Source: Escherichia phage vB_EcoM_ASO1A. From it: DNA of 64,000 bases. A program made the translations under genes and the position numbers. The notes under the pieces were generated by a model, which was not told where the DNA came from, ran no database searches, and saw only the letters and a list, made by a program, of their open reading frames with translations. Of this stretch, positions 2,633 through 7,784 are shown piece after piece; within the stretch, counting starts at the first letter, position 1; the number at the start of each line of letters is the position of its first letter. The stretch lies in the sequence record MZ726791.1. One strand, written 5' to 3'.

Positions 2633-2709
2633 CTCTGTTTAGCTCAGCTTGGTAGAGCGTTCCGTTTGGGGCGGTAAGGCCGGAGGTTCAAGTCCTCCAA
2701 CAGAGACCA
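2633..2709 (+). tRNA. tRNA-Pro (anticodon TGG)
   Basis: Acceptor CTCTGTT/AACAGAG, D-arm GCTCAGCTTGGTAGAGC, T-arm GGAGG-TTCAAGT-CCTCC, CCA encoded. Confidence 0.7.
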
Positions 2710-2716
2710 AATTAAT

Positions 2717-2794
2717 GTTCCAGTAGACAAAATGGTAAAGTCACCACTCTTTCAAAGTGGATATCTGAGGGTTCAAATCCCTTCTGGAACGCCA
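2717..2794 (+). tRNA. tRNA-Glu (anticodon TTC)
   Basis: Acceptor GTTCCAG/CTGGAAC, anticodon stem CCACT/AGTGG loop CTTTCAA, T-arm GAGGG-TTCAAAT-CCCTT, CCA. Confidence 0.7.
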
Positions 2795-2884
2795 GTTTTG
2801 ACAGAAGACCAATTACAGCAAACTTAATCTACTCATCTGACACGAAATCGGACAAAGAAGATATTTGGTCTGGTCATTGAGAAT

Positions 2885-2961
2885 TGCGGGTATAGAGAAA
2901 GGGCGTCTCACATGTCTCATTAGCATGGTATCGGCAGGTTCGACTCCTGCACCCGCCTCCA
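2885..2961 (+). tRNA. tRNA-Met/fMet/Ile2 (anticodon CAT)
   Basis: Anticodon arm CATGT-CTCATTA-GCATG, T-arm GCAGG-TTCGACT-CCTGC, CCA; 1:72 pair mismatched. Confidence 0.6.
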
Positions 2962-3038
2962 ATTTTGCAGAAGACCGTATTCAGCAACAAAATACTTTTT
3001 GCGGATAAAAGAAAAAACACGGTCTGGCAATGTATTAA

Positions 3039-3115
3039 GGTTAGGAAGCACATAAGGTATGTGCGGTCGCCTGTTAAGCGAATGGCACAGGGTTCGAATC
3101 CCTGACTAACCGCCA
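3039..3115 (+). tRNA. tRNA-Asn (anticodon GTT)
   Basis: Acceptor GGTTAGG/ACTAACC, D-stem GCAC/GTGC, anticodon loop CTGTTAA, T-arm CAGGG-TTCGAAT-CCCTG, CCA. Confidence 0.7.
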
Positions 3116-3124
3116 AATTTAAAT

Positions 3125-3212
3125 GTGTCGTTATCCCGTAGATGGTAGCGGTGGGGACTGTAAATCCCTTGTCATTGAGACTCGGTAGGTTCGACTCCTA
3201 CACGGCACACCA
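3125..3212 (+). tRNA. tRNA-Tyr (anticodon GTA), type II with long variable arm
   Basis: Acceptor GTGTCGT/ACGGCAC, anticodon arm GGGGA-CTGTAAA-TCCCT, long variable arm, T-arm GTAGG-TTCGACT-CCTAC, CCA. Confidence 0.65.
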
Positions 3213-3217
3213 ATAAA

Positions 3218-3295
3218 GGTTATGTAGTTTAATTTGGTTAAAATACTCCCCTGTCACGGGAGATGATGAGGGTTCAAATCCCTTCGTAACCGCCA
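3218..3295 (+). tRNA. tRNA-Asp (anticodon GTC)
   Basis: Acceptor GGTTATG/CGTAACC, anticodon arm CTCCC-CTGTCAC-GGGAG, T-arm GAGGG-TTCAAAT-CCCTT, CCA. Confidence 0.65.
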
Positions 3296-3321
3296 ATTTT
3301 GAGAGGGCTATTTAGCCCCTC

Positions 3322-3354
3322 CCTTAAAGGGTTCTTACGAGTATCCTTTAAAGG
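3322..3354 (+). repeat. conserved hairpin element copy A (TTAAAGGG-TTCTTACGAG-TATCCTTTAAAGG)
   Basis: Imperfect palindrome with conserved loop; related copies near 4169, 6671 and 35415. Confidence 0.5.
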
Positions 3355-3356
3355 AG

Positions 3357-3429
3357 CAGAAGACCAAATACAGCAAGAACGTATGAAATTTCAAGCCAAT
3401 TTAATTTTGAAAATTTAAACTTGGTCTGG
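3357..3429 (+). repeat. inter-tRNA spacer unit CAGAAGACC ... GGTCTGG (copy 3 of 4)
   Basis: Same terminal motifs as units at 2802-2873, 2968-3027 and 3443-3574; ends are complementary (AGACC/GGTCT). Confidence 0.45.
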
Positions 3430-3495
3430 CTCAACAAATTTACAGAAGACCGTTTACAGCAAAACTTAAACAATCTATTTCTCCGGTAAAGAAAA

Positions 3496-3560
3496 GGCGA
3501 AGGTTCGATTCCTTCACTCGGCAGATGTCGAGTTGGTGTAATGGTAGCACTTAAGATGAT
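3496..3560 (+). ncRNA. tRNA-like fragments: T-arm hairpin (GAAGG-TTCGATT-CCTTC) + 7-bp acceptor-like hairpin (ACTCGGC/GTCGAGT) + D-arm-like GTGTAATGGTAGCAC; pseudo-tRNA or structured RNA
   Basis: Read directly; elements are in non-canonical order (3' half before 5' half), so no canonical cloverleaf. Confidence 0.3.
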
Positions 3561-3723
3561 AAACAACGGTCTGGTAATTATCTTTGTAGATAAGTTATTA
3601 AGCTTACCTGTGAGTATGCGACCACAAAGGGTGAAAGGGTAAATTCTAGATTTAAACCCAAAAAGGCACATCGCTACAGACCTTAAGCAAGTCTGGGTAG
3701 CTTATCTACAAAGATAATTTAAT

Positions 3724-3798
3724 GGAAGTGTAGCAGAATGGTGATGCGGCAGACTTTTAATCTGACAGGCGATGGGTTCGAATCCCTCCACTTCTACC
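3724..3798 (+). tRNA. tRNA-Lys (anticodon TTT)
   Basis: Acceptor GGAAGTG/CACTTCT, anticodon stem CAGA/TCTG loop CTTTTAA, T-loop TTCGAAT, CCA; T-stem has two weak pairs. Confidence 0.55.
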
Positions 3799-3804
3799 AA
3801 AAAT

Positions 3805-3881
3805 GGTTCAGTCGCAGATAAGGTAATGCAAGGGTTTCATAAGCCCTATGAATGTGGGTTCGATTCCCACCTGAACCTCCA
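3805..3881 (+). tRNA. tRNA-Met/Ile2/fMet (anticodon CAT), second CAT tRNA
   Basis: Acceptor GGTTCAG/CTGAACC, anticodon arm AGGGT-TTCATAA-GCCCT, T-arm GTGGG-TTCGATT-CCCAC, CCA. Confidence 0.65.
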
Positions 3882-3882
3882 A

Positions 3883-3958
3883 GCTGGTATAGTTAAGAAG
3901 GTTATAACACTCCCCTGATAAGGGAACATCGGTGGTTCGATTCCACCTACCAGTACCA
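3883..3958 (+). tRNA. tRNA-Ile (anticodon GAT)
   Basis: Acceptor GCTGGTA/TACCAGT, D-stem GTTA/TAAC, anticodon loop CTGATAA, T-arm GGTGG-TTCGATT-CCACC, CCA. Confidence 0.7.
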
Positions 3959-3973
3959 ATTTCAATAAAGTTG

Positions 3974-4002
3974 TTGACATTGAGATGTGACTACTTTATA
4001 GT
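3974..4002 (+). promoter_or_regulatory. strong sigma70-like promoter (TTGACA - 17 nt - TATAGT) inside tRNA array
   Basis: Read directly; followed by ~200 nt without tRNA or ORF. Confidence 0.6.
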
Positions 4003-4168
4003 AACCTTAGTTTTCGTTGCGTAGCGTCTATTTTGCAAATTTAAAATAAATGCAAACGACAATGTTTTTCTGGCAGTAGCTTGATAGGCTAAACACCAGT
4101 GAGGTCTTCCAATCCCTCATCAAAGAATTTGGCGTACTCGCCCACGGTATGATTAATAAGGTGGGCAT

Positions 4169-4199
4169 CTTTAAGGGCTTTCTAAGAGAGTCTTTAAAG
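4169..4199 (+). repeat. conserved hairpin element copy B (CTTTAAGGGCTTTCTAAGAGAGTCTTTAAAG)
   Basis: Shares AGGG-YTTTCTAAGAGAGTC core and palindromic TTAAAG flanks with copies A and C. Confidence 0.5.
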
Positions 4200-4206
4200 A
4201 TAATTA

Positions 4207-4288
4207 CGGGGCGTATCTCAGCGGTCTTCTAAACCGCCGTTAACCGAGTAAGTGGAGTATGCGGGTTCGAGTCCTGCCGCCTCGACCA
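4207..4288 (+). tRNA. atypical tRNA-like gene, anticodon TCT (Arg) with no canonical D-arm and an extended variable region
   Basis: Acceptor CGGGGCG/CGCCTCG, anticodon arm GCGGT-CTTCTAA-ACCGC, T-arm GCGGG-TTCGAGT-CCTGC, CCA; only 7 nt between acceptor and anticodon stem. Confidence 0.4.
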
Positions 4289-4431
4289 ATTTAGTTAGCA
4301 GATTACTTAGACGACCTAAGCGGGTCTTCCTGTAAGGAGGTGGTCTGTATCTCATGTTTTCCAGAACATGTAAATAATCTGAGAAGGGGCTTTACAGTGT
4401 TGCGAAAATACGGTAAGCTTCGAATTACAGT

Positions 4432-4514
4432 ATGGGACGATGTTAAGACTCTAAGGCATGAGCAACGGCCTCCAAAACCGTTTCAAAGGGGTTCAACTCC
4501 TCCGTCCCATGCCA
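4432..4514 (+). tRNA. tRNA-Trp (anticodon CCA), enlarged D region
   Basis: Acceptor ATGGGAC/GTCCCAT, anticodon stem ACGG/CCGT loop CTCCAAA, T-loop TTCAACT, CCA. Confidence 0.5.
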
Positions 4515-4527
4515 AAGTCTTATTAGG

Positions 4528-4615
4528 GGTAGGTAGCGGCTAATGGTAGCCAAACTGTATTGAAAACAGTTGCCACTGTAGAGATACGGTGAGGGTTCGA
4601 CTCCTTTACTTACCG
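4528..4615 (+). tRNA. tRNA-Ser (anticodon TGA), type II, 3' CCA not encoded
   Basis: Acceptor GGTAGGT/ACTTACC, 3-bp D-stem, anticodon arm ACTGT-ATTGAAA-ACAGT, long variable arm, T-loop TTCGACT. Confidence 0.55.
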
Positions 4616-4769
4616 CCTAATAAGATTTACACCGTCCATGCTTGCTCGCATTTTCGGTTTATCCCTCGTGTATTGTCGTACACTGATAAAGCACCTAGTA
4701 GGTGTCACGGAGAAGAGATAATATCAAGCTCTCCAAAGGTTCTAGTCACCGGATTAAACAAGACTATGC

Positions 4770-4795
4770 AAAGACCTATTTAGGTCTTTTTAGAG
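4770..4795 (+). terminator. rho-independent terminator-like hairpin (AGACCTA/TAGGTCT + T-run)
   Basis: Perfect 7-bp stem followed by TTTTT; ends a ~150 nt non-coding stretch after tRNA-Ser. Confidence 0.5.
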
Positions 4796-4871
4796 GGCTT
4801 CTAAGGTTATTAGTCGCTTGTTGTGGAACCTTGTTGCTCAGGTTCTTAGAAGTTCTCTAAAAAGATTTAAT

Positions 4872-4950
4872 GGGAGATTGACGGCAACTTGGTAGACCTA
4901 TCTCGCTTAGAACGAGATGCTTGAGGGTTCGAATCCCTTGTCTCCTACCA
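4872..4950 (+). tRNA. tRNA with Leu anticodon TAG, Leu-like D-arm but short variable arm
   Basis: Acceptor GGGAGAT/GTCTCCT, anticodon arm TCTCG-CTTAGAA-CGAGA, T-arm GAGGG-TTCGAAT-CCCTT, CCA; D-loop CAACTTGGTAGA. Confidence 0.5.
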
Positions 4951-4957
4951 AATTAAT

Positions 4958-5033
4958 GCAGGTGTAGCAAAATGGTTATGCGGCTGACTCTTAATCAGTA
5001 AGACGATGGGTTCAATTCCCTCCACCTGTACCA
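4958..5033 (+). tRNA. tRNA-Lys (anticodon CTT)
   Basis: Acceptor GCAGGTG/CACCTGT, anticodon stem GCTGA/TCAGT loop CTCTTAA, T-loop TTCAATT, CCA; paralogous to Lys(TTT). Confidence 0.6.
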
Positions 5034-5039
5034 GACATT

Positions 5040-5115
5040 GGGGATGTAGTTTACATGGTTAAAACATAAGTTTTGCAAACTTAAGTACAGGGTTCAATTC
5101 CATGCTTCTCCACCA
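5040..5115 (+). tRNA. tRNA-Ala (anticodon TGC)
   Basis: D-stem GTTT/AAAC, anticodon arm TAAGT-TTTGCAA-ACTTA, T-loop TTCAATT, CCA. Confidence 0.6.
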
Positions 5116-5121
5116 ATTAGT

Positions 5122-5196
5122 GCATCCATAGTTTAAACGGGAAAATTACAGTCTTCCAAACTGAGGTTGAGGGTTCGATTCCCTCTGGATGCTCCA
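5122..5196 (+). tRNA. tRNA-Gly (anticodon TCC)
   Basis: Acceptor GCATCCA/TGGATGC, anticodon stem CAGT/ACTG loop CTTCCAA, T-arm GAGGG-TTCGATT-CCCTC, CCA. Confidence 0.65.
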
Positions 5197-5203
5197 AATT
5201 AAT

Positions 5204-5279
5204 GCTCCTATCGTATAATTGGCTATTACGGTTGCCTTGTAAGCAACTTATCAGGGTTCGAATCCTTGTGGGAGCACCA
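5204..5279 (+). tRNA. tRNA-Thr (anticodon TGT)
   Basis: Acceptor GCTCCTA/TGGGAGC, anticodon arm GTTGC-CTTGTAA-GCAAC, T-arm CAGGG-TTCGAAT-CCTTG, CCA. Confidence 0.7.
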
Positions 5280-5282
5280 ATT

Positions 5283-5372
5283 CAGAGGTCAAGTGAAAGA
5301 CCGCTGGTGTCAACTGAAGACCGTAACAAATTCCACGGAGTTGAGTTAGCGGCACAACTTCAGACCTCTTTC
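5283..5372 (+). ncRNA. candidate structured spacer RNA (long-range stem CAGAGGTC ... GACCTCTG enclosing internal hairpins)
   Basis: Complementary 8-mers ~80 nt apart between tRNA-Thr and tRNA-Val; no ORF, no tRNA fold. Confidence 0.25.
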
Positions 5373-5374
5373 AT

Positions 5375-5449
5375 GCTCGCTTAGTTTATATGGTAAAACA
5401 TCACCCTTACAAGATGAAGAAAAAGGTTCAAGTCCTTTAGTGAGTACCA
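5375..5449 (+). tRNA. tRNA-Val (anticodon TAC)
   Basis: Acceptor GCTCGCT/AGTGAGT, D-stem GTTT/AAAC, anticodon loop CTTACAA, T-arm AAAGG-TTCAAGT-CCTTT, CCA. Confidence 0.65.
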
Positions 5450-5450
5450 T

Positions 5451-5528
5451 GTTCCAGTATCCCAATTGGCAGAGGATGCAAGCTCAAACCTTGTATTAGT
5501 GACGGTTCGAATCCGTCTTGGAACACCA
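5451..5528 (+). tRNA. tRNA with Leu anticodon CAA, short variable arm
   Basis: Acceptor GTTCCAG/TTGGAAC, D-loop CAATTGGCAGA, anticodon stem GCAAG/CTTGT loop CTCAAAC, T-arm GACGG-TTCGAAT-CCGTC, CCA. Confidence 0.5.
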
Positions 5529-5533
5529 ATTTT

Positions 5534-5609
5534 GCAGGATTAGTTCAAATGGATAGAGCAACAGTCTACGAAGCTGTTAATAGGGGTTCGAATCCCTTAT
5601 CCTGCGCCA
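5534..5609 (+). tRNA. tRNA-Arg (anticodon ACG)
   Basis: Acceptor GCAGGAT/ATCCTGC, D-arm GTTC-AAATGGATA-GAGC, anticodon arm ACAGT-CTACGAA-GCTGT, T-arm AGGGG-TTCGAAT-CCCTT, CCA. Confidence 0.7.
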
Positions 5610-5626
5610 GATAAAAAGGTGATACT

Positions 5627-5869
5627 ATGCAAACATTAACAGTAGTTGAACATGAAAACTGTGAGAATATTGAGTTTGTCAGGGTCATTGGTGTTGAACA
5701 CCACATTTTCTTAAAAGTAGGGTACTTATGTGACCCCGCTAGAGTAGAAAGATTTATACGTGATTGTTTTGGTGGTAGACAGCTAAAGAGTGTTATTTTT
5801 GAGACAGTTTTACCAGAAGGTTTAGAAACGAATAATAACATTTATCTCCTTACAAGGATTAGACGATGA
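5627..5869 (+). CDS. hypothetical small protein embedded in tRNA array
   Basis: 80 aa ORF; AAGGTGA SD 7 nt upstream of ATG; directly follows tRNA-Arg. Confidence 0.4.
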   Translation: MQTLTVVEHENCENIEFVRVIGVEHHIFLKVGYLCDPARVERFIRDCFGGRQLKSVIFETVLPEGLETNNNIYLLTRIRR

Positions 5870-6423
5870 GATATTTAAAATATGCTTCATGGATTTTCCT
5901 AGCTTTGCTAGAACCATTAGCAGCAACCTTAGCAGTTATCTTAGCACCTTTCGTAGTTCCATTTTACAGTGAGAAGAAAGGCCACTTACCTTTCGGATTT
6001 AGATGGATGGAGACATATGACAACCCAATTGATGGTGACGAAGGTCATATCGAACGATGGGCTAAGATTAGAAAGATTGGTAAGCTGGGTGTCTACATGC
6101 AGAGAGTCGGATGGCTCTGGAGAAACAAAGCTTATAACTTCTCTTACCATGTATTAGGAAGAGATGTAAAAGATGTTACTAAGTGGAAAGGTAATATCAA
6201 CGTAAGTTCTGACCCTGAAGATAATCAGACAGGTTATCTCCTAATGTGGAACAGTAATGCTTGGGGATTATTCGCTTTTATCCCATCAATTAAAGTCTTT
6301 GGTAAACAATTTTACTGGAGAATTTATATTGGGTGGAAGCTAAAAAGTGTTGTCCCAGAAGAAAGAGCATTCTCAAGGGAAAGAGTTATGTTGGCATTCT
6401 TTATTCATCCACTAAGAAAGTAA
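5866..6423 (+). CDS. hypothetical membrane protein (N-terminal hydrophobic segment, Trp-rich)
   Basis: 185 aa; ATG with AAGGA SD; start overlaps upstream ORF stop (ATGA). Confidence 0.55.
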   Translation: MRYLKYASWIFLALLEPLAATLAVILAPFVVPFYSEKKGHLPFGFRWMETYDNPIDGDEGHIERWAKIRKIGKLGVYMQRVGWLWRNKAYNFSYHVLGRDVKDVTKWKGNINVSSDPEDNQTGYLLMWNSNAWGLFAFIPSIKVFGKQFYWRIYIGWKLKSVVPEERAFSRERVMLAFFIHPLRK

Positions 6424-6431
6424 AGATTTAA

Positions 6432-6507
6432 AGGGGATTAGTTTACAAGGTTAAAACCTCGGTCTTTGAAATCGAAGAAGTTGGTTCAATTCCAACATCC
6501 CCCGCCA
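6432..6507 (+). tRNA. tRNA-Gln (anticodon TTG)
   Basis: D-stem GTTT/AAAC, anticodon arm TCGGT-CTTTGAA-ATCGA, T-arm GTTGG-TTCAATT-CCAAC, CCA; 1:72 mismatch. Confidence 0.6.
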
Positions 6508-6509
6508 AT

Positions 6510-6588
6510 GCTCCATTACTCCAATTGGCAGAGAGGCCAGACTTAAAATCTGTGTTATGTATCGGTTCGAATCCGATATGGAGTACCA
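6510..6588 (+). tRNA. tRNA with Leu anticodon TAA, short variable arm
   Basis: Acceptor GCTCCAT/ATGGAGT, D-loop AATTGGCAGA, anticodon stem CAGA/TCTG loop CTTAAAA, T-arm ATCGG-TTCGAAT-CCGAT, CCA. Confidence 0.5.
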
Positions 6589-6593
6589 AATTT

Positions 6594-6669
6594 AGCGGTA
6601 TAGCATAACTGGCAATGCAACAGTCTCTGAAGCTGTCCTATTAAGGTTCAAATCCTTATGCCGCTGCCA
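6594..6669 (+). tRNA. tRNA-Gln (anticodon CTG)
   Basis: Acceptor AGCGGTA/TGCCGCT, anticodon arm ACAGT-CTCTGAA-GCTGT, T-arm TAAGG-TTCAAAT-CCTTA, CCA. Confidence 0.65.
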
Positions 6670-6670
6670 C

Positions 6671-6701
6671 TTCTAAGGGTTCTTACGAGAGTCCTTAAAT
6701 G
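6671..6701 (+). repeat. conserved hairpin element copy C (TTCTAAGGGTTCTTACGAGAGTCCTTAAATG)
   Basis: Near-identical loop (GGGTTCTTACGAG) to copy A. Confidence 0.5.
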
Positions 6702-6776
6702 TGGCCTTATCATAAATGGTAATGACCCATGCTGTGAACATGGTCTATACGGGTTCAAATCCCGTAGGTCACCCCA
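6701..6776 (+). tRNA. tRNA-His (anticodon GTG)
   Basis: Acceptor GTGGCCT/AGGTCAC, D-stem TCAT/ATGA, anticodon arm CCATG-CTGTGAA-CATGG, T-arm ACGGG-TTCAAAT-CCCGT, CCA; no encoded G-1. Confidence 0.7.
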
Positions 6777-6781
6777 ATTTA

Positions 6782-6858
6782 TAGTCCAAGTAGCTTATAT
6801 GGTTAAAGCGCGTGTCTGAAAAACATGAGAAGAGGGTTCAAATCCCACTGGACTACCA
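6782..6858 (+). tRNA. tRNA-Phe (anticodon GAA), 3' CCA not fully encoded
   Basis: Acceptor TAGTCCA/TGGACTA, D-stem GCTT/AAGC, anticodon arm CGTGT-CTGAAAA-ACATG, T-loop TTCAAAT; odd 8-9 spacing. Confidence 0.55.
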
Positions 6859-6874
6859 ATTTCAAAGGTGCTTA

Positions 6875-7609
6875 ATGAAAGAGATGACAGAACAAGGTAA
6901 GGAGATTTTTAATCTCTTAAAAACCGGTAAAGGGTTTTCTAACCCACTTATTACTGGTGCAGCAGTTCTCGGTGGAACCGTAGCTGCCTCTACATCACTT
7001 GTAAGCTCTATTAGTTCTGTAACAGACCCTACAATGCAGGAGAAACTTGTTGCTGCTGGACTTACAACAGTCCTTCTAAACAGCTTTACAACAAGCCTTA
7101 CAAGCACTACAGCAACTACTAAGACCCTGACAGACTACGGTCAAAAGTCTATTGATGAGTTTTCATCACGTATGCAGGTAGCAAAGGGATATTCCAATGT
7201 TATGAGTGCAGCAGGAGAACAAGTTGGTTGTACACCGTTCAGTGGTATTATGGGTGTTGCTACAGAATATGGTCAAAAAGCTATTGATACAATTAACAGT
7301 ACACTAGAGAGTGTTAACGATGTATTAAGTGACTTACAAGACGCTATTGATGAGGGTCTTGATACTATTTCTGATTTAGCTAATCAGGCTGTTAGTAAGA
7401 TTAATGAAGGTATTTCAAAGATTACAGCTTATGCAGATGAAGTTGTGCAGATGATTGAAGAAGAAGCTGCCCTTATTGCAGAGTACCTTAAAACGAATAT
7501 CAATGGGTTCTTAGCAGGTATCTTACCAGACTGGTTTGACGATGCCTGTAAAACTGGTGTAATTGACACTATTGCAACACCAGAAATGAAGAACGCATTA
7601 CAGAAATAA
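6875..7609 (+). CDS. hypothetical protein (Ala/Ser/Thr-rich N-terminal half, acidic helical C-terminal half)
   Basis: Track ORF 6812-7609 trimmed to in-frame ATG (Met22) with AAAGGTG SD, because the first 45 nt overlap tRNA-Phe. Confidence 0.55.
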   Translation: MKEMTEQGKEIFNLLKTGKGFSNPLITGAAVLGGTVAASTSLVSSISSVTDPTMQEKLVAAGLTTVLLNSFTTSLTSTTATTKTLTDYGQKSIDEFSSRMQVAKGYSNVMSAAGEQVGCTPFSGIMGVATEYGQKAIDTINSTLESVNDVLSDLQDAIDEGLDTISDLANQAVSKINEGISKITAYADEVVQMIEEEAALIAEYLKTNINGFLAGILPDWFDDACKTGVIDTIATPEMKNALQK

Positions 7610-7611
7610 AT

Positions 7612-7704
7612 GGAAGATTAACCCTAAAAGGTAAGGGAGCAGTTTGCTAAACTGCCAGTAGCTGAGAAATCGGTGTACCAGTTCAAGTCTGGTATCTTCC
7701 TCCA
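7612..7704 (+). tRNA. tRNA-Ser (anticodon GCT), type II
   Basis: Acceptor GGAAGAT/ATCTTCC, anticodon arm GCAGT-TTGCTAA-ACTGC, long variable arm, T-arm ACCAG-TTCAAGT-CTGGT, CCA. Confidence 0.7.
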
Positions 7705-7708
7705 ATTT

Positions 7709-7784
7709 GAATCCGTGACAGAAATGGCTATGTGCCTGTCTGCAAAACAGGTTTATAAGGGTTCGAGTCCCTTCGGATTCTCCA
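7709..7784 (+). tRNA. tRNA-Cys (anticodon GCA)
   Basis: Acceptor GAATCCG/CGGATTC, anticodon arm CCTGT-CTGCAAA-ACAGG, T-arm AAGGG-TTCGAGT-CCCTT, CCA. Confidence 0.7.

Follow-up and report, generated by a model that had tools for sequence, protein, structure and literature searches.

Metazoan mitochondria contain transfer RNAs (tRNAs) in which no D hairpin separates the acceptor stem from the anticodon stem: in tRNA-Ser(AGY/AGN), with anticodon GCU or UCU, a short 5′ connector joins the two, and the nematode form has UCU (PMC7609411; PMC4013460). D-stem and D-loop are truly lacking in these small, flexible molecules, whose 3′ connector is likewise short and which depend on mitochondrial factors adapted to them. 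Permuted tRNA genes of the red alga Cyanidioschyzon merolae and tRNAs circularly permuted in vitro depart from the usual order in another way, and their reordered segments still give a folded tRNA. In the C. merolae type, the whole molecule is permuted in the gene and then processed to a normal tRNA, whereas in the in vitro type the ends are merely moved. Here, we analyse a tRNA-like element at positions 4207-4288 (plus strand) of a 64,000-nucleotide stretch of DNA from Escherichia phage vB_EcoM_ASO1A (sequence record MZ726791.1), called the window below, and compare it with these and other kinds of tRNA. Based on sequence comparison, we consider it probable, at roughly three chances in four, that the element is a functional AGA-decoding tRNA-Arg(UCU) gene with a segment-swapped core, and that it belongs to a widespread, apparently phage-restricted family.

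The element has the acceptor stem, T-arm and anticodon arm that define a tRNA by structure and departs from that structural definition only in its local D-arm. An initial annotation, made from the sequence alone, had described a tRNA gene with the arginine anticodon TCT and without a canonical D-arm hairpin, and our analysis supports this description. The anticodon stem-loop had been given exactly (GCGGT-CTTCTAA-ACCGC), and so had the spacing of 7 nucleotides (nt) between acceptor and anticodon stems; that between anticodon and T stems, given as about 23 nt, is 23 nt. The canonical T-arm with an encoded CCA was likewise found as described, with 5 base pairs (bp), one of them G.U, a UUCGAGU loop and then ACCA. 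The acceptor stem CGGGGCG/CGCCTCG, which had been called perfect, does form 7 bp but is not strictly perfect, because pair 3-70 is G.U.

Scans for sequence patterns in IMG/VR, in metagenomes from JGI and in genomes from GTDB, each with a different part of the molecule left free, yielded at least 132 distinct full-length relatives from unrelated phages and metagenomes. An alignment of 132 distinct sequences underlies the family counts given throughout. In this alignment, a helix that we call D′ is formed by columns 10-14 (window 4216-4220) and 39-43 (window 4245-4249). The parts of the element, all on the plus strand and written as RNA, are as follows.

4207..4213, plus strand: 5′ strand of the acceptor stem, CGGGGCG, pairing with 4278-4284; pair 3-70 is G.U; 7/7 pairs covary and 98.5% of cells are paired
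4214..4215, plus strand: U8 A9; UA in 132/132
4216..4220, plus strand: strand a of the D′ helix, UCUCA, standing for canonical positions 22-26; it abuts the anticodon stem and pairs with 4245-4249
4221..4237, plus strand: anticodon arm, GCGGU-CUUCUAA-ACCGC, 5 bp and a 7-nt loop, with the anticodon UCU at 4228-4230; 5/5 stem pairs covary
4238..4244, plus strand: linker or bulge of 7 nt, CGUUAAC, which connects the anticodon stem to strand b of D′; consensus C-R-U-U-A-A-N, six variants in 132 sequences
4245..4249, plus strand: strand b of the D′ helix, CGAGU, standing for canonical positions 10-13; it covaries with 4216-4220, and the D-loop-like segment follows directly 3′
4250..4260, plus strand: D-loop-like segment, AAGUGGAGUAU, 11 nt; proposed A14 A15 n U17 G18 G19 A20 .. 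A21 U48
4261..4277, plus strand: T-arm, GCGGG-UUCGAGU-CCUGC, 5 bp with one G.U; 99.1% of cells are paired and 4/5 pairs covary
4278..4284, plus strand: 3′ strand of the acceptor stem, CGCCUCG, covarying with 4207-4213
4285..4288, plus strand: discriminator A73 and encoded CCA, read from the sequence

All four helices (acceptor, anticodon, T and D′) covary across the family. The 132 sequences contain 23 distinct combinations of the two D′ strands, and the pairs are distributed as follows.

Columns 10-43: U.U in all but one of 132
Columns 11-42: C-G in 132/132
Columns 12-41: U-A 81, G-C 31, A-U 18, C-G 2; unpaired 0
Columns 13-40: C-G 114, G-C 8, U-A 8, U-G 2; unpaired 0
Columns 14-39: A.C 75, C.A 28, A-U 12, C-G 7, U.G 3, C.C 3, A.A 2, U-A 2

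At the junction pair, 14-39, A.C thus swaps with C.A, A-U and C-G. In the window copy, the D′ helix consists of three Watson-Crick pairs flanked by U.U and A.C, and encloses the anticodon arm together with the 7-nt bulge. We regard the secondary structure with the D′ helix UCUCA-CGAGU around the anticodon arm as established, at the level of the aligned sequences, by this covariation. Other pairings were tried and rejected. A rival pairing of UA.CUC with the second GAGUA (4253-4257; GAG at 4253-4255) leaves 51/132 sequences unpaired at its middle pair. A variable-arm hairpin, present in the minimum free energy (MFE) structure from RNAfold (4244-4246 with 4253-4255), is unpaired in 35, 42 and 8 of 132 sequences at its three pairs, essentially uncompensated. 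A fold with a standard D-arm, in this or another register, was sought and none was found: the space 5′ of the anticodon stem is just 7 nt long, and the D-arm is deleted in the alignment to the Rfam tRNA model.

Directly after strand b comes a near-invariant segment, AA-n-UGGAGUAU, that is AA-n-UGGAGUA-U, with the T-stem next. It resembles the D-loops of canonical phage tRNA-Arg, for example AAAUGGAUA in the window tRNA-Arg(ACG) at 5534, which reads UA-GUUC-AAAUGGAUA-GAGC-A. In the window copy, the segment looks like a tRNA-Arg D-loop, with A14, A15, G18, G19, A20, A21 and U48 as proposed residues. U8 A9 is retained in every member, and a U before the T-stem, a plausible U48 partner of A15, is kept as well. 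Judged by this correspondence, strand b and the loop that follows it are the canonical block 10-21, strand a and the anticodon arm are the canonical block 22-43, and the two blocks have exchanged places. The covariation of the D-stem and the presence of a D-loop-like segment therefore indicate that D-stem and D-loop are both there, in swapped order. The earlier view that the gene has no canonical D-arm is thus correct for the local hairpin; the UCUCA-CGAGU covariation argues that the D-arm was rearranged and not lost.

The closest canonical counterpart is the bacterial or phage tRNA-Arg(UCU), for example that of phage KPS64. The two agree in the acceptor stem (7 bp), the T-stem (5 bp, UUCGAGU loop) and the anticodon stem (5 bp, CUUCUAA loop), as well as in an A/G discriminator, in U8 A9, in a D-loop sequence that contains GGA and in their slot in the tRNA array. 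They differ in connectivity. The canonical tRNA-Arg has its D-arm as a local hairpin ahead of the anticodon arm, with the D-loop closed by the D-stem. In the swapped tRNA, the D strands flank the anticodon arm, the 3′ one is followed by the D-loop and then by the T-stem, and the connections made by 26 and 44-48 give way to a conserved CGUUAAY linker of 7 nt. With the D-armless mitochondrial tRNA-Ser the element shares the short 5′ connector and the absence of a D hairpin between acceptor and anticodon stems. In contrast to it, the phage RNA measures 79 nt plus CCA, has a 23-nt 3′ connector, a covarying D-stem equivalent and a full D-loop-like segment with GG, and presumably uses standard bacterial factors. 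Because both the D-stem equivalent and the D-loop-like segment are present, the element is not of the D-armless mitochondrial type.

Nor does it fit the other kinds of tRNA with unusual outlines. Class II tRNAs (Leu, Ser and bacterial Tyr), tRNA-Sec and allo-tRNAs share with it a long stretch between anticodon and T stems, but they have a variable hairpin of their own, whereas the swapped tRNA has no canonical D-arm and acceptor/T stems of 7/5, not 8/4 or 9/3. The lack of a variable hairpin and the 7/5 stems exclude it from these classes; the Rfam tRNA-Sec model gave weak matches to neighbouring tRNAs. The element is not a gene-level permuted tRNA either, because the acceptor strands stand at both ends in normal order. 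Unlike the C. merolae type, it has normal ends and two internal segments exchanged within an RNA of mature length, and no splicing motif is evident in 4207-4288. The tRNA-like domain of transfer-messenger RNA (tmRNA) also combines an acceptor stem and a T-arm with the absence of a local D-stem, and the window copy further shares G3.U70 with A73. It differs from tmRNA in its complete anticodon arm and in having no mRNA-like domain or tag open reading frame (ORF), and G3.U70 is not a feature of the family. A tmRNA or permuted tmRNA spanning the upstream leader and the element was considered and discarded: ARAGORN reported none, and the Rfam matches, at 16 and 13 bits, stayed below the gathering score of 47.

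Standard tools see this architecture poorly. In the covariance-model check that had been proposed, the Rfam tRNA model (RF00005) gave 4207-4288 a score of 31.7 bits against a gathering score of 29, with the D-arm deleted and 20 nt inserted in the variable region. A covariance model built on the family scored the window element at 94.7 bits (E about 1e-28) and found no second copy in the window. A structural descriptor without sequence motifs found 173 elements in the fetched phage loci and 0 in shuffled copies, so the feature greatly exceeds what chance would give. As a single sequence, the element folds no better than its shuffles (z = 0.04), so the case rests wholly on comparative evidence. 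ARAGORN misses 129/132 family members, the window copy included. In GenBank records, the element is mostly left without annotation or covered by spurious ORFs; where it is annotated, the labels are 'tRNA', 'tRNA-OTHER' and 'tRNA-Leu(taa)', the phage 121Q record having tRNA-Leu.

The family is broadly distributed among phages. A blastn search with the element and its flanks found that the unit of about 80 nt alone is conserved, cut exactly at the tRNA boundaries, at 83-90% identity. Its carriers are otherwise unrelated to Felixounavirus, the genus of the window phage, and include the jumbo phage 121Q (Asteriusvirus) and its relatives, the Klebsiella phages Sugarland/Roth37 and KB57/Iguana, rV5-like and phi92-like coliphages, Serratia phage Kamaji and Streptomyces phage BoomerJR. 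Copies in isolate phages always lie within tRNA clusters, and other tRNAs are nearby in 98/132 loci. A scan of GTDB with one genome per species (185,579 prokaryotic species) returned 4 matches, all on contigs of metagenome-assembled genomes (MAGs). On these 4 contigs, tRNA genes are densely arrayed and HNH endonucleases and a PurZ-like gene are present, so they are taken to be phage DNA. The swapped tRNA family thus appears to be restricted to phages. HNH homing-endonuclease genes adjoin the swapped tRNA gene in unrelated phages (L004:1598-2107, L078:1284-1847 and L105:5183-5731), and some Felixounaviruses have an HNH gene inserted in the corresponding spacer. Such endonucleases may contribute to the horizontal spread of the gene.

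Some loci hold more than one unusual gene. Locus L173 (contig Ga0255783_10000721) has three swapped tRNA-Arg genes (CCU, UCU and ACG) and two canonical UCU genes, L182 has adjacent swapped UCU and CCU genes, and L059 has a UCU gene and an ACG variant with a short linker. At L178:3368-3449 (contig Ga0315289_10080829), adjoining a family member at 3461-3539, lies a gene with the swapped architecture and the anticodon UAU (Ile, AUA). Its RNA reads UGAAGAG UA ACGGU CUGGG-CUUAUAA-CCUAG GAGUUUAAAU ACCGU AAUGGUUCUU, followed by the T-arm and CCA, and all five pairs of its D′ helix are perfect Watson-Crick pairs. The swapped architecture may therefore not be limited to arginine. No homologues of this Ile(UAU) variant were found in isolate phages by blastn, and swapped tRNAs of other identities offer too few fixed bases for pattern searches of public databases. 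The array of Klebsiella phage Iguana, which has a swapped tRNA-Arg, contains another irregular tRNA (L227:11563-11637), reported by ARAGORN as 'tRNA-???' with a two-base anticodon (ga) and recorded as a pseudo tRNA-Ser.

The family bears the sequence marks of arginine tRNAs. The anticodons are UCU in 122 members, CCU in 5, ACG in 3, UCG in 1 and ACU in 1, so that all but one belong to arginine, from both codon boxes, and this also holds in the scans in which the anticodon was left free. Within the anticodon loop, U33 and a purine at 37 are found, C35 is invariant and position 36 is U in 128 and G in 4; the T-loop is UUCRAnn across the family. The discriminator is G in 76, A in 49, U in 5 and C in 2 members, hence a purine in 125/132. 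In bacteria, arginine identity is set by A20, C35, U/G36 and A/G73 (PMC9976931). C35, U/G36 and A/G73 of the family match these rules for the bacterial arginyl-tRNA synthetase (ArgRS). The UGGAG of the D-loop-like segment fits the canonical pattern G18 G19 A20, with the placement of A20 in the variable pocket depending on the predicted three-dimensional fold. CCA is encoded in 91/132 members, in keeping with true tRNA genes whose transcripts are matured by enzymes of the host.

Codon usage and gene content agree with an arginine tRNA that reads AGA. This codon is rare in Escherichia coli. In the window, it is the commonest arginine codon, with 41.6% of arginine codons and 17.8 per 1000 (crude ORFs; G+C 39%). 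According to ARAGORN, the only other tRNA-Arg of the window has the anticodon ACG, and a canonical tRNA-Arg(UCU) is absent. The same pattern, Arg(ACG) plus the swapped gene, is found in the whole cluster of 22-24 tRNAs of Klebsiella phage Iguana. In the sister genus Mooglevirus (KPS64, MK562502), a canonical 76-nt tRNA-Arg(UCU) with a normal D-arm lies between tRNA-Ile(GAU) and tRNA-Ser(UGA). The 'Arg_TCT' of Shigella phage Sf14 (PMC12482277) was considered as a further copy of the swapped gene and set aside, the syntenic gene in the related Mooglevirus KPS64 being the canonical 76-nt form. Taken together, the arginine identity set, the demand for AGA, the tRNA sets and the synteny with Mooglevirus lead us to read the element as a phage tRNA-Arg for AGA/AGG.

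A canonical tRNA runs from the 5′ acceptor strand and U8 A9 through the D 5′ strand and D-loop, the D 3′ strand and anticodon arm, and the variable loop to the T-arm. The swapped molecule runs from the 5′ acceptor strand and U8 A9 to UCUCA and the anticodon arm, then CGUUAAC, then CGAGU and the D-loop-like AAGUGGAGUA, a U and the T-arm. In the fold that we propose, the D′ helix and the anticodon stem would form one stack of about 10 layers (5 + 5, compared with 4 + 1 + 5 normally), as long as the normal D-stem, pair 26.44 and anticodon stem together. The relocated D-loop would present G18 G19 to the T-loop for the elbow contacts and A20 to the synthetase, while U8, A14, A15, A21 and U48 would restore the usual core, so that the RNA would keep its L shape. 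The new junctions, 9-to-22, 43-to-10 and 21-to-48, would join residues that are neighbours in canonical tRNA structures. The stacked fold is consistent with the divergent member L059:2689-2763 (anticodon ACG), whose 43-to-10 linker has only about 2 nt. The gene would be transcribed from the promoter at 3974 together with the rest of the array, and its RNA processed at both ends. The host ArgRS would charge it via A20, C35, U36 and A73, and it would decode AGA and probably AGG too. Its origin by duplication of both blocks, followed by loss of the outer copies, is speculation.

Several points weigh against a functional segment-swapped tRNA-Arg. The L-shaped fold is a topological argument, and the expression, processing, aminoacylation and decoding of the element are inferred. 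RNAalifold returned only the three classical helices from the 132-sequence alignment; on energy grounds it missed the D′ helix of 3 bp, for which the explicit counts of pairs are the evidence. The invariance of GUAUC, CRUUAA and UGGAGUAUG was partly set by the search patterns, each of these being left free in at least one scan. One member in 132 has the anticodon ACU. In about 11 carrier loci, a canonical tRNA-Arg (UCU or CCU) is also nearby, and the three swapped arginine genes of L173 stand with two canonical UCU genes, so simple codon supply is not the whole story. The window copy itself has G3.U70, A73, G2-C71 and G4-C69, which make up an acceptor end of the type recognised by alanyl-tRNA synthetase (AlaRS). 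That acceptor end gives rise to a rival reading, a mis-sense or dual identity, in which the Felixounavirus copy would be charged partly or wholly with alanine and would insert it at AGA, or would serve a tmRNA-like or non-ribosomal role. G3.U70 is the major AlaRS determinant, and enterobacterial-phage copies retain it while pairs 1-72 and 2-71 change. The pair is also listed in the tables of PMC9976931. As a family-wide alanine mark it fails, being absent from 124/132 members, which have G-C, C-G, U-A or A-U instead; with only 8/132 carrying it, G3.U70 is a feature of a lineage. The ArgRS determinants are kept family-wide, alanine at the commonest arginine codon of the phage would be highly deleterious, and ARAGORN found no tmRNA, the Rfam tmRNA match in the leader reaching 16 bits against a gathering score of 47. 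We consider alanine charging very improbable. Less probable still, and strongly disfavoured, is an element without adaptor function, either a tRNA pseudogene in decay or a tRNA-like signal by which the array transcript is processed or structured. The failure of ARAGORN, an Rfam score barely above threshold, a single-sequence fold at z = 0.04 against shuffles and the lack of annotation in most GenBank records would all suit such a relic. They are answered by purifying selection with compensatory changes in four helices over 132 sequences, by a conserved anticodon loop with arginine anticodons in all but one member, by the lack of any other possible AGA reader in the complete tRNA sets of two phages (the window phage and Iguana), and by its occupation of the syntenic slot of the canonical tRNA-Arg(UCU) of Mooglevirus.

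A different question is what selection acts on. The RNA might accept arginine while its topology is selected to escape a host factor that recognises the canonical D-arm or elbow of tRNA-Arg, or to act as a decoy for it. Such a factor might be a tRNA nuclease directed against phages or an enzyme of tRNA modification or turnover. This explanation is compatible with decoding and differs in what is selected. The family looks phage-only, with its 4 matches among 185,579 species genomes all on phage-like MAG contigs, it is spread over unrelated phages of the same hosts, and in several loci it coexists with a canonical tRNA-Arg of the same anticodon. Phage tRNAs are reported to counter tRNA-targeting defences (PMC10264068; PMC11555353; PMC11464382). 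In the literature searched, however, no known defence was found that targets tRNA-Arg(UCU) via the D-arm, the anticodon loop, which is the usual nuclease target, is the canonical CUUCUAA, and no gene association hints at a partner. We therefore judge this explanation unlikely. Given the coexistence with canonical genes and the apparent restriction to phages, the topology itself might nevertheless confer a selective advantage. A broader proposal, that 'segment-swapped' tRNAs are a new phage-only structural class, mainly for arginine with at least one for Ile(UAU), kept to escape host factors yet charged by the host synthetase, is a little more plausible, though still doubtful. As the reading of the window element itself, we retain an AGA-decoding tRNA-Arg with a swapped core.

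The window belongs to a Felixounavirus (Ounavirinae), and the tested stretch is 100% identical to Escherichia phage vB_EcoM_ASO1B (MZ726792). ARAGORN finds 25 tRNAs at 2633-7784, a large array within which the element lies, and makes no call at 4207-4288. Two features precede the element, and the promoter noted earlier at 3974 agrees with a motif match and with a GenBank annotation.

3974..4002, plus strand: putative sigma-70-like promoter, TTGACA-17-TATAGT, 11/12 consensus matches, annotated as a promoter in the identical record MZ726792
4003..4206, plus strand: structured leader of about 200 nt, MFE -58.8 kcal/mol, z = -4.4 against shuffles

Near its 3′ end, 5 nt before the tRNA, the leader has a long hairpin (about 4167-4201), and a search for ORFs in 4003-4206 found none longer than 46 amino acids; the leader is presumably cut off in 5′ processing. 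A spacer at about 4776-4876 (plus strand), ahead of tRNA-Leu(UAG), is strongly structured too and has a long hairpin at about 4786-4864 similar to that of the leader; matches to miRNA families there are due to chance. Both structured spacers may be processing or attenuation elements.

Two other irregular candidates were seen in the array. At 4432-4514 (plus strand), there is a second odd tRNA-like gene without annotation, with the acceptor stem AUGGGAC/GUCCCAU, a G discriminator and CCA. Its anticodon loop, CUCCAAA (CCA), is tRNA-Trp-like, its T-arm loop is UUCAACU and its D region is enlarged to 25 nt. It is missed by ARAGORN, falls below the Rfam thresholds, is annotated in no record and is conserved only within the Ounavirinae. 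From its sequence, this gene would provide Trp, the sole amino acid otherwise missing from the array. At about 3395-3523 (plus strand), the identical GenBank record has a 129-nt 'tRNA-Thr-GGT' from tRNAscan-SE, where neither ARAGORN nor Rfam at the gathering threshold gave a tRNA; the call may be false, or the gene may encode an unusual tRNA, for instance one with an intron.

In the literature searched, we found no account of a phage tRNA-Arg that is D-armless, rearranged or non-canonical in another way; subscription journals were thinly covered and an earlier description is possible. Phages go unmentioned in a 2020 review of non-canonical tRNAs. If our reading is true, the element would be a natural tRNA of the bacterial world whose core is wired unlike the universal cloverleaf while the nucleotides of the tertiary core are conserved. 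It would offer a direct test of connectivity against geometry among the features of tRNA architecture, and a possible new scaffold for orthogonal tRNAs. Because ARAGORN misses 129/132 members and little is annotated, phage tRNA repertoires and analyses of codon supply would systematically lack this AGA reader, which is under-counted in Felix O1-like, rV5-like, 121Q-like and other phages. The apparent restriction to phages, the spread across unrelated phages and the occasional canonical tRNA-Arg alongside suggest a selective reason beyond codon supply, which is testable against tRNA-targeting defence systems.

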